Positions 25,001 through 26,998 of a stretch of DNA of 64,000 nt are shown one piece after another (the stretch's first letter is position 1; each line of letters opens with the position of its first letter). The position numbers and the translations under genes are program-made. Below the pieces are notes generated by a model that saw nothing but the letters and a program-made list of their open reading frames with translations, did not search any database and had not been told where the DNA came from. This DNA is from Schmidtea polychroa (lineage: Eukaryota), in contig CM097885.1 of assembly GCA_044892525.1 (NCBI GenBank), positions 262,818,001-262,882,000 on the forward strand, read 5' to 3'.

Positions 25001-26987
25001 AGTACATACCTGCTTTCGACACATCAATTGGCTTGAAATCTTGTTCTGTTGCGAGTTCTATTAATCCAAACTTTTTAGGTTCTTGTACTTCAGTTTTTAC
25101 TGGTAACATTATCCATTTCCCATCGGGTTTTTCGTAATATGGTCCGTATGCATTTGAACAGTTAAAGGTGTTCGGATAAAATCCAATTGGGTTCATGATT
25201 CTAGTGACGGGTTGAACGAATCTATTCTGCCCTTTGTAACTAATTTCTAATTCGTTTGCACATTTTCCTGGTGGAATTGTGGGTTTTCTTGGCATTCTCG
25301 CGAACGTCTTGGTACATGCGTATGTATACATTACCTCTCCCACCATTCTGCCAAAATGTCCATCCGGTAACGGGAGTGATGGCATCGTGTTATCTGGGTG
25401 GGTTATTGCGATGGCTAATTTTGTTTTTAGTATCTCTTTATTCAATGAACAGTCATTTTGTATAAGATCGTAGTATACTTTTTGCATTGTCGTTTGTCCA
25501 CGATGAAATAAAAAGTCCATTTTATTATTGGCGTAAAGGTACAACTTCACGTCCTCCGTTGATACCTTTCCTACTGCTCGGTCTATTACTTGTCTTGACA
25601 TGTAGATGCCTGCGTAGTTGGTTCTGTATACTATGCTGTCACATTTGGTGGTCTCTTTTTCTCTGATGAATCTCATACCTATATCTGGGTCATCTGTAAT
25701 TAATGCCGTTAGTGTTTTTTGTGTTGTGAGTCTTTTTTCTTTGGGGGATGGTGGAACTGGTTTTCCATTTCGCATCCTTACGTTTCCATTCTCTTCATCG
25801 TCATCTTCATTTTCGTAAATTTCTCCTTTTACTTCGTTGAACAGAGCACTTTTTAACAATTGGAGTCGGCATTTTTGGGTGTAAGCTTCATATATTATGG
25901 TCGAAATTCCCGTACTACACACGTTTTCCGTAGCTCTGCATGCTGGGTTGGTTTTCATTTGATAATTATTTGCGTCGAATTGCGCTTCGTATTCCTTCAA
26001 CTCCACTGTGTAGGATTCGATTACTACTACCCCCGATATCACCTCTCCTCTGATCGTGTATGTGCCTCCGTTACATGATCCATCAGTTGATTTTACTCGT
26101 CCGGCTACATAGATGCTTTCAGTCTTGATCATTCCGCTTTGTCCGTGTATTGTTACTCCGTCTCTGATTCTCATCGCTCCGGTTCTAAAAAGCTCTTTAC
26201 AGTCTTCTCGTTGTATAGGTACTATTTCTTTATCAAATCCGGGTAGTATGAGAGTTGAATATGAGTATTGTCCACAGTAATATGCTAACACCTTCTTTGA
26301 TACTACGCATTCCTTTGCTTGTGTTCTAATAAAATCTGATTCTTGGTATACATGATATGAGACTTTCTTTTTCACGACATCCAATTTATTCGGAGATGCT
26401 TGTCTACATTCCTCTATATCCCTCAAGGAGTATTTTTCTCCCATTATCGAATTGTCGCAGTCGTAAATAGTAAAGCTTGATGCTCCGCTTGTACATAGCA
26501 TCCATATCATCATGGTCATCATTAGCGAATTAATCGACGCTTTTCTACTGGCGGGATCTTTCATTGGCAATTCCCATTCTAGTTCGTTTAGTAATTTCTT
26601 CAACCTGATTTGCATTGATCTCTCTTGCTCGTTTTTTCGTGGCGCTTTTATAAGCCTTTTCCACCCGCCGGCGCGGATAATATGTGGTTCGATTGTATTT
26701 TCAATGATTGTCACTGTCATTTCAACGTGATTTGCGAATTGTTTGTTAGGTATTTTCCTCGCTGCTAATCCCATCAAATTGTACATTAAATACGTTAATA
26801 CCACTAGATGATGTTCATCGTCGTTCGCGTTTAAGGTTAATTGTTCAATTATTCTCCTTGTCTCTTCCCAATCTGTTTTCGTGGTTTTTGTTTTTTCTTT
26901 GATTAATTTCGGAATTATTCCGGATATTGCGTTCCATAGTTGTCTGGCGTCTACGCTTGCTACTTTTCGTTGCCATAACCGTCTCAA
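22059..26987 (-). CDS. 1642-aa open frame: Bcl-2-like domain - signal - class III envelope glycoprotein - TM - aspartic protease - RT remnant - RNase H - integrase zinc finger
   Basis: IIRAGGW (BH2-like); SLMMTMMIWMLCTSGASS|FTIYDC; MIDTGAN and IIGTDL (protease); PSKC...FLGHIV...FLGLCGYYRKFI (RT end); TDASG, YSVTEREALA, TDHQPL (RNase H); H-x6-H...C-x2-C (IN). Confidence 0.93.
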   Translation of the reverse strand: MRRLWQRKVASVDARQLWNAISGIIPKLIKEKTKTTKTDWEETRRIIEQLTLNANDDEHHLVVLTYLMYNLMGLAARKIPNKQFANHVEMTVTIIENTIEPHIIRAGGWKRLIKAPRKNEQERSMQIRLKKLLNELEWELPMKDPASRKASINSLMMTMMIWMLCTSGASSFTIYDCDNSIMGEKYSLRDIEECRQASPNKLDVVKKKVSYHVYQESDFIRTQAKECVVSKKVLAYYCGQYSYSTLILPGFDKEIVPIQREDCKELFRTGAMRIRDGVTIHGQSGMIKTESIYVAGRVKSTDGSCNGGTYTIRGEVISGVVVIESYTVELKEYEAQFDANNYQMKTNPACRATENVCSTGISTIIYEAYTQKCRLQLLKSALFNEVKGEIYENEDDDEENGNVRMRNGKPVPPSPKEKRLTTQKTLTALITDDPDIGMRFIREKETTKCDSIVYRTNYAGIYMSRQVIDRAVGKVSTEDVKLYLYANNKMDFLFHRGQTTMQKVYYDLIQNDCSLNKEILKTKLAIAITHPDNTMPSLPLPDGHFGRMVGEVMYTYACTKTFARMPRKPTIPPGKCANELEISYKGQNRFVQPVTRIMNPIGFYPNTFNCSNAYGPYYEKPDGKWIMLPVKTEVQEPKKFGLIELATEQDFKPIDVSKAGMYSPEDLETARLNVLFPARRESILSNMVTITGGTNFQSGPNYELLLSPDHFQHATSNMMKAMWGRFLVFGQMMAGILGIILIIQIIRVILTQMLACFDIYKREKKVNWKLIVGFLPFLAKTMVLHGHSKDIHRIKRLIKILTKIKGTDEEVGRRFRKTMYDEATRAQLKKNKPKFLDRFRNRSNSSDRDDDDNGNDKYPYPSRNPNEKQIETAPYWEKEKTNTWIANGSYIPPDIVGQQAALTMTHNMYPQLPSQPGMNYMPTRRTKSVDQADDVRTIAVMSSPGGAAVTVMIQINGKETGAMIDTGANVSAIAINQIPSKYWKDIEQTTIHIIACSKETVDVVGRWWTTLRYQDNEIETYLAVIPKLSEPCIIGTDLMPELFKEVVIDLTTMCLKDKMSRICKMNAIIRCPEKIIVPAKSQMICQIKVDTGMEGEAIFEPSKSFEKRRELPLAREIITINEEGEIPINITNFEEEDKIIYENERLGRLTPMMDIELPKVTNESTTDDELWIIDSTLLTENEKRKLQQLLIEYKDIFASSDLDLGACDVALHAIPSKCDWAKEKVTFLGHIVSAKGKEPDPRNIEKIKTCSPPKTVTQVQEFLGLCGYYRKFIKNYASIAKPIQELVKKDISFIWGAEQQKAFETLRDKLIEAPILVHPDFKKPFLLATDASGYAAGAILGQLDEEGKERVIGYYSRTFKKHEKNYSVTEREALAIIQAIKHFRYLLWGHEICITTDHQPLVWLGQHKEASSRLMLWAMQLQEYSPFIKFKAGRANANADCMSRFIFPDLVDHEMQRICLMVAEDLDFCQLRKDQQEDAELKQIIEYVKTGKAEVYEKDQKLKEHMDKHRHRYIMEKDWLLIMDGEKRLMCSPENRRKDLLTQYHDGRLGGHMSSKKTLARMKQKYFWPTLIEDVTEWVKNCITCATRKNTGTKWKGPLKPMPVPAEPMTMISMDVVGPLPESDRGNIYIYISDYRLSDKIP
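24630..26528 (-). other. env: Envelope domain: chuvirus/monjiviricete-like (herpes gB-related class III) fusion glycoprotein
   Basis: Motif series IYDC, YYCGQYSY, GSCNGG, YANNKMDF, DCSLNKEIL, GEVMYTYAC, NELEISYKG..FVQPVTRI, GMYSPEDL..LFP follows, from memory, the conserved order in chuvirus glycoproteins; TM FLVFGQMMAGILGIILIIQIIRVIL. Confidence 0.8.
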
Positions 26988-26998
26988 TTGCGGGTTTG

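Follow-up and report, generated by a model that had tools for sequence, protein, structure and literature searches.

The window analysed here is a 64,000-nucleotide stretch of the Schmidtea polychroa genome (GenBank assembly GCA_044892525.1, contig CM097885.1, positions 262,818,001 to 262,882,000 of the forward strand), and contains on its minus strand a giant long terminal repeat (LTR) retroelement, which we assign to the Burro type from the published description of Burro layout. Between gag and the envelope glycoprotein (env) its polyprotein carries a domain that sequence profiles and a structure model support as a divergent Bcl-2 relative without the NWGR motif of Bcl-2 homology region 1 (BH1). 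We give an approximately even chance (probability about 0.5) to the reading that this domain, predicted to have a Bcl-2 fold, serves as a cytosolic scaffold and influences death or stress signalling of the host by a route other than the standard BH3 groove. The domain would work like a captured Bcl-2 scaffold, but its PF00452 score and its BH1 sequence fall short of those of the family. The finding bears on the role of the Bcl-2-like portion in Burro elements.

Position and sequence of the Bcl-2-like domain

The initial annotation had described a helical segment with a GGW tripeptide ahead of the env signal, and the peptides it quoted all lie in one minus-strand frame, 22059-27002: TRRIIEQL at 26861-26838, HHLVVLTYL at 26813-26787, TIIENTIEP at 26711-26685 and GGW at 26669-26661. 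The interval then proposed (26645..26990) falls inside the domain, which starts further upstream; siblings have 46 extra bases at ~27003. Likewise, the domain does precede the signal segment, but not immediately, as a linker of ~45 residues intervenes. GGW, checked in other copies, is conserved at 59 of the 60 loci examined in the window element's family (some copies having been fetched twice). The suggested loss of NWGR was borne out: the motif is not present in this family, and DDEH (26822-26811, -) occupies its position in Bcl-xL. For BH2 (W-I-x-x-x-G-G-W), the I and GGW are kept, while the first W is H in the window element's family and W in the three other families introduced below.

A Pfam search of the frame 22059-27002 gave a weak Bcl-2 match exactly on the flagged segment (E 0.049, 14.6 bits), and PF00452 compared with the domain segment gave E 0.016, under the cut-off. 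Searching the genome with Pfam revealed a second element family with a clearer Bcl-2-like domain in the same place before the env signal, and a search with the env family added two more, for four families in total. The other three share 14-21% identity with the window element's family and retain I128, GGW and several core positions. Bcl-2 is the top Pfam match for all eight segments from the four families (16.2 to 29.9 bits), and one sister-family copy scores 32.2 bits with PF00452, for which the curated cut-off is 31.4.

A profile built from the three other families, with the window element's family left out, gives the window segment 27.0 bits, a score equalled by none of 4000 shuffles (maxima of 9.9 in 2000 full shuffles and 14.5 in 2000 with GGW fixed). 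Against the 1033 six-frame stretches of the window, the Bcl-2-like segment is its only match under E 0.4 (iE 2.6e-5). A profile of seven non-element exons scores the segment at 15.3, versus shuffle maxima of 8.9 and 11.0. The profile of the window element's family aligns with that of the other three at 92% probability (E 5.6e-7), and the four-family profile compared with the PDB finds Bcl-xL or Bcl-2 in all of the 60 best of 115 matches (best E 3.5e-4).

Several results weigh against this reading. The window element's family, at 14.6-16.5 bits, does not reach the PF00452 cut-off; BLASTP between two of the element families matched only the GGW stretch; alignment of the element domain to the non-element exons by hhalign gave just 20%; and searches with the domain as a single sequence found no Bcl-2 protein.

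Predicted fold

The structure model was made on a sibling copy rather than the window copy, and has moderate confidence (predicted local distance difference test, pLDDT, of 60). It predicts a helical bundle around a central hydrophobic helix, i.e., a Bcl-2 fold, in which helix 1 comprises residues 8-22. When the model was compared with known structures, as the initial annotation had proposed, the top 16 of 48,161 chains were all of the Bcl-2 family. Its nearest folds include BH3-bound Bcl-xL, A179L, KsBcl-2 and BHRF1, and BALF1-type viral proteins are also among its neighbours.

Groove residues and selection

In human Bcl-2, the substitutions W144A, G145A, G145E, R146A and W188A each lead to complete loss of Bax binding (PMC6825947, Table 1). 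All four of these positions are replaced in the window element's family, and the standard BH3 groove is therefore doubtful there. The other three families also lack NWGR, but have retained the BH2 Trp. The introduction of PMC4358236 counts F1, M11 and N1 among poxvirus proteins that block apoptosis although their sequences bear no clear likeness, so that a standard groove is doubtful yet not impossible; other poxvirus Bcl-2 folds instead inhibit NF-kB or IRF3 (same introduction). Support for the earlier proposal of a divergent viral-type Bcl-2 is partial, covering the Bcl-2-like sequence and, at the model's confidence, the fold; an anti-apoptotic function is putative, and the four Bax-binding groove residues are replaced.

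The domain is under purifying selection as a protein, like the remaining polyprotein. Twenty of 29 sibling loci with an uninterrupted frame across the stretch were compared in pairs, which are not independent. The pooled ratio of nonsynonymous to synonymous substitution (dN/dS) is 0.042 in the domain as a whole and 0.023 in its second half; upstream it is 0.074, and env gives 0.017.

Signal segment and candidate protease sites

All four families have a hydrophobic segment 25-53 residues after GGW and before the env YDC motif, which lies at 26465-26457 (-) in the window. In the window element's family this segment is weak (a Kyte-Doolittle 15-mer value of 1.65 in a sibling, versus 2.4-2.95 in the other families), and in the sibling copy it begins ~48 codons downstream of the GGW start, which corresponds to about 26525-26481 in the window. 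A recurring pattern, picked by eye as a candidate protease-site motif, occurs 9 times in its strict form versus 1.8 times in shuffles, counts that are inflated because of that choice; the sites include the protease start, the RNase H-integrase border and the integrase end. The loose form is not clearly enriched. Given a strict site upstream of the domain and a lower end near the signal, the product would therefore have ~370 residues. The sequence is compatible with both fates raised in the initial annotation: a domain held on the membrane by the signal segment, or one cut free by the protease.

A basic GRP motif lies upstream of the domain, which we take to be AT-hook-like or nuclear-signal-like. 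Similar motifs occur in the second family and in P0003, and none was seen in the third or fourth family; the motif could send a released product to the nucleus or DNA.

Possible roles of the domain

For the scaffold reading, we picture a domain that was probably captured from a host gene long ago and placed in frame between gag and env. The polyprotein from gag to the Bcl-2 domain would be cytosolic, the internal signal would thread env into the endoplasmic reticulum (ER), and the env transmembrane segment would return protease and pol to the cytosol. The element's protease would free the product at the upstream site, and its lower end would be set by signal peptidase (leaving it anchored) or by protease (leaving it soluble). 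The freed domain probably binds through a surface other than the standard BH3 groove and thereby modulates death or stress signalling, which may serve to keep the host cell alive or quiet. Poxvirus A49, A52 and kin likewise have a Bcl-2 fold without the usual motifs (PMC4358236, in part), and their reuse in signalling offers by analogy a working model for the element domain.

The foremost alternative, to which we give a clearly smaller share, is a working viral-type apoptosis antagonist, whose remodelled groove would bind Bak, Bax or BH3-only proteins of the host, with the env signal as its tail anchor. The BH3-bound structures among the closest folds favour it, as do the GGW and following hydrophobic segment kept in four families, since cellular Bcl-2 proteins have a tail anchor at a comparable place after BH2. 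It is further favoured by a Burro1 inhibitor of apoptosis protein (IAP) that is said to protect planarian stem cells from apoptosis (Lee et al. 2026, second-hand in a passage of PMC13465017). The replaced Bax-binding positions speak for the scaffold reading instead. A179L, KsBcl-2, BHRF1 and M11L are separate genes of large DNA viruses with demonstrated BH3 binding, such binding by the element domain being putative.

A more specific and rather unlikely proposal makes the env signal the tail anchor of the Bcl-2 domain, so that signal peptidase would leave an ER-bound Bcl-2-fold protein one-for-one with Env; this protein would counter the death or stress response to the fusion glycoprotein through an acidic, rebuilt groove for a partner other than a classical BH3. 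If the env signal does anchor the domain, the element would show a retroelement fusing a death regulator to its envelope pathway.

It is improbable that the domain serves the element's life cycle only, for instance by acting as a folded spacer, or as a matrix-like module on the membrane side, so as to place the env signal or to tether Gag to the membrane. Its position directly before the env signal is fixed in four families despite their low identity, and an env-less derivative (L100, below) retains the domain followed by another hydrophobic segment, both of which fit such a role; however, the BH2 GGW and Bcl-2 core pattern are recognisable despite deep divergence, and the element carries further death and signalling modules. 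Slightly less probable still is a decoy or dominant-negative Bcl-2 relative, which, by binding either others of its own kind or Bcl-2-family proteins of the host, would tune or even promote cell death or particle release. The kept fold with lost groove residues would suit a decoy, and the BALF1-type neighbours have been counted in its favour; BALF1-type proteins have an antagonist role. Chance likeness of a helical segment with a GGW tripeptide is very improbable, for although the sub-cut-off Pfam score and the direct searches without a Bcl-2 protein would fit it, GGW-keeping shuffles never equal the real score, the positional homologues are clearer and fold searches converge on Bcl-2.

The four divergent families form a panel for structure and BH3-binding work.

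Relation to Burro and to cellular Bcl-2 proteins

As described in PMC6431247 (section 7), Burro elements of planarians exceed 30 kb and have an ORF1 (open reading frame 1) of 4,873 residues; that section credits their BCL2-like motif to Grohme et al. 2018, describes an in-frame env that separates BCL2 from protease and matches mononegavirus fusion proteins, and calls for tests of a link to apoptosis. The finding is thus mostly a rediscovery, because the gag-Bcl-2-env arrangement was already published. The window element resembles these giant gypsy-like LTR elements (Burro/GYPSM1) in its length (~28 kb, with an internal region of ~25 kb), one very long ORF (in many siblings), a gag with CCHC knuckles, a BCL2-like motif followed by env and protease in that order, and ankyrin and TRAF/MATH cargo; in the window copy a single frame extends from the domain across env and protease as far as integrase. 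It differs from the description in that section in that its MATH/TRAF is a separate downstream ORF, its scanned ORFs contain no BIR match, and the copy is broken. BURRO1 has been used as an active transposon in PMC8532177, the relevant passages of which do not mention 'Bcl', and Burro is named once in passages of PMC11410931. Among the papers listed in our literature searches, none was seen to deal with how the Bcl-2 domain of Burro folds or is anchored, or with its groove; more on it may stand in Grohme et al. 2018 and Lee et al. 2026.

Compared with the cellular family (Bcl-xL, Bcl-2, Bax, Bak; PF00452), the element domain has 10-16% identity, carries DDEH for NWGR and His for the first BH2 Trp, and, unlike the cellular proteins, lies within a polyprotein and scores under the Pfam cut-off.

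Organization and decay of the window copy

The features of the element are collected in Table 1. The two 2-kb repeats are 98.7% identical with TG...CA ends, and the element therefore spans 27.7 kb. The five bases flanking the outer LTR ends (8808-8812 and 36541-36545) agree in three of five places, and hence there is no clean target-site duplication. The sequence beside the 5' LTR (34513-34537, -) resembles a tRNA-Pro primer binding site. A tandem array of 79-base units (32576-33049) lies between the RING ORF and gag.

Table 1. Features of the Burro-type element in the window (positions of the 64,000-nucleotide stretch).
Feature	Position	Strand	Basis or remark
5' LTR	34538..36540	-	TG...CA ends; 98.7% identical to 8813-10817 over 2013 columns
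Accessory RING (zf-C3HC4_3) ORF, between 5' LTR and gag	33612..34109	-	Pfam match
gag, CCHC knuckles and spacer region	27907..31585	-	ORFs and Pfam; split over two frames in window copy
Strict candidate protease-site match, nearest upstream of domain (~320 residues)	27626..27637	-	Motif scan
Basic GRP motif, ~50 residues before domain	27122..27148	-	Seen in translation
Break in window copy	27000..27010	-	DNA alignment with 3 siblings; 46 bases fewer, frameshift with stop codon, loss of helix 1
Bcl-2-like domain, helices after helix 1	26643..27002	-	Sub-cut-off PF00452 match, profile of other families, sibling model; helix 1 absent in window copy
BH1-equivalent turn and central helix	26787..26843	-	Family alignment and its profile aligned to Bcl-xL chains
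BH2-equivalent	26649..26711	-	GGW kept, first Trp to His
Loose candidate protease-site match, directly before signal segment	26523..26534	-	Motif scan, loose pattern only
Hydrophobic internal signal-like segment of env	~26475..26525	-	Kyte-Doolittle 15-mer; weak in this family
env, Monjiviricetes-type fusion glycoprotein	24738..26474	-	PF24664, E 8.8e-72; transmembrane segment 24788-24738 by hydropathy
Protease, RNase H, integrase	21749..24137	-	Pfam; integrase split over two frames
Ankyrin-repeat region, polyprotein end	18024..21745	-	Pfam; two frames
Accessory TRAF-like ORF (RING, TRAF zinc finger, MATH)	16020..17459	-	Pfam
3' LTR	8813..10817	-	Repeat pair with 34538-36540; TG...CA ends

Besides Bcl-2, the frame 22059-27002 has Pfam matches to the fusion glycoprotein, retroviral protease, RNase H and integrase zinc finger. 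No reverse transcriptase (RT) family was matched in the Pfam scan of the element ORFs of the window copy, in which the RT core has apparently been deleted. In the ankyrin region, a second signal-like hydrophobic segment (19064-18950, -) follows a strict protease-like motif, and another hydrophobic segment lies near the frame end; a second membrane protein is possibly encoded at the polyprotein end. A further accessory ORF (13166-13837, -) has a signal-like start, a coiled-coil-like middle and a second hydrophobic segment, with no Pfam match.

The window copy has decayed, with gag, the Bcl-2-like domain and integrase each split over frames. Owing to the 46-base deficit and frameshift at ~27003, helix 1 and the in-frame connection to gag are missing, and the copy is dead for the Bcl-2-like domain. 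By contrast with this break, the whole domain is covered by a single open frame in 25 of 30 sibling loci. In the family survey, 150 of 959 candidates were scored, and each shares 93-100% identity with the sibling used as query. By hand count, ~65 of these 150 sit in open frames of at least 4,700 residues, and many siblings have one ORF of about 4,700-4,810 residues.

Related loci and neighbouring genes

The Pfam Bcl-2 search of the genome also turned up short genes, some of them exon-like. Elsewhere in the genome, several short Bcl-2 genes are present in multiple copies (L061-L067, L076-L081 and L083-L090), some with an intron-like stretch. L100 (3-4820 of G000:C2:128249000-128254000) is derived from the second family and retains a gag knuckle and the Bcl-2-like domain, after which another hydrophobic segment and unrelated sequence replace env, protease and pol. 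A later stretch of L100, without a Pfam match, resembles by eye what we take to be a DEDD-type exonuclease. At least 150 BIR matches are found elsewhere in the genome, mostly in ORFs of ~392 residues, and may represent IAP cargo that belongs to a different Burro family.

Outside the element, the window contains a DNA polymerase B (60061-63210, -; PF03175, E 5.3e-31) that is probably part of a Polinton/Maverick, and an ORF (7357-7872, +) that, judged by eye, we take to resemble the C-terminal dimerisation part of a hAT transposase.
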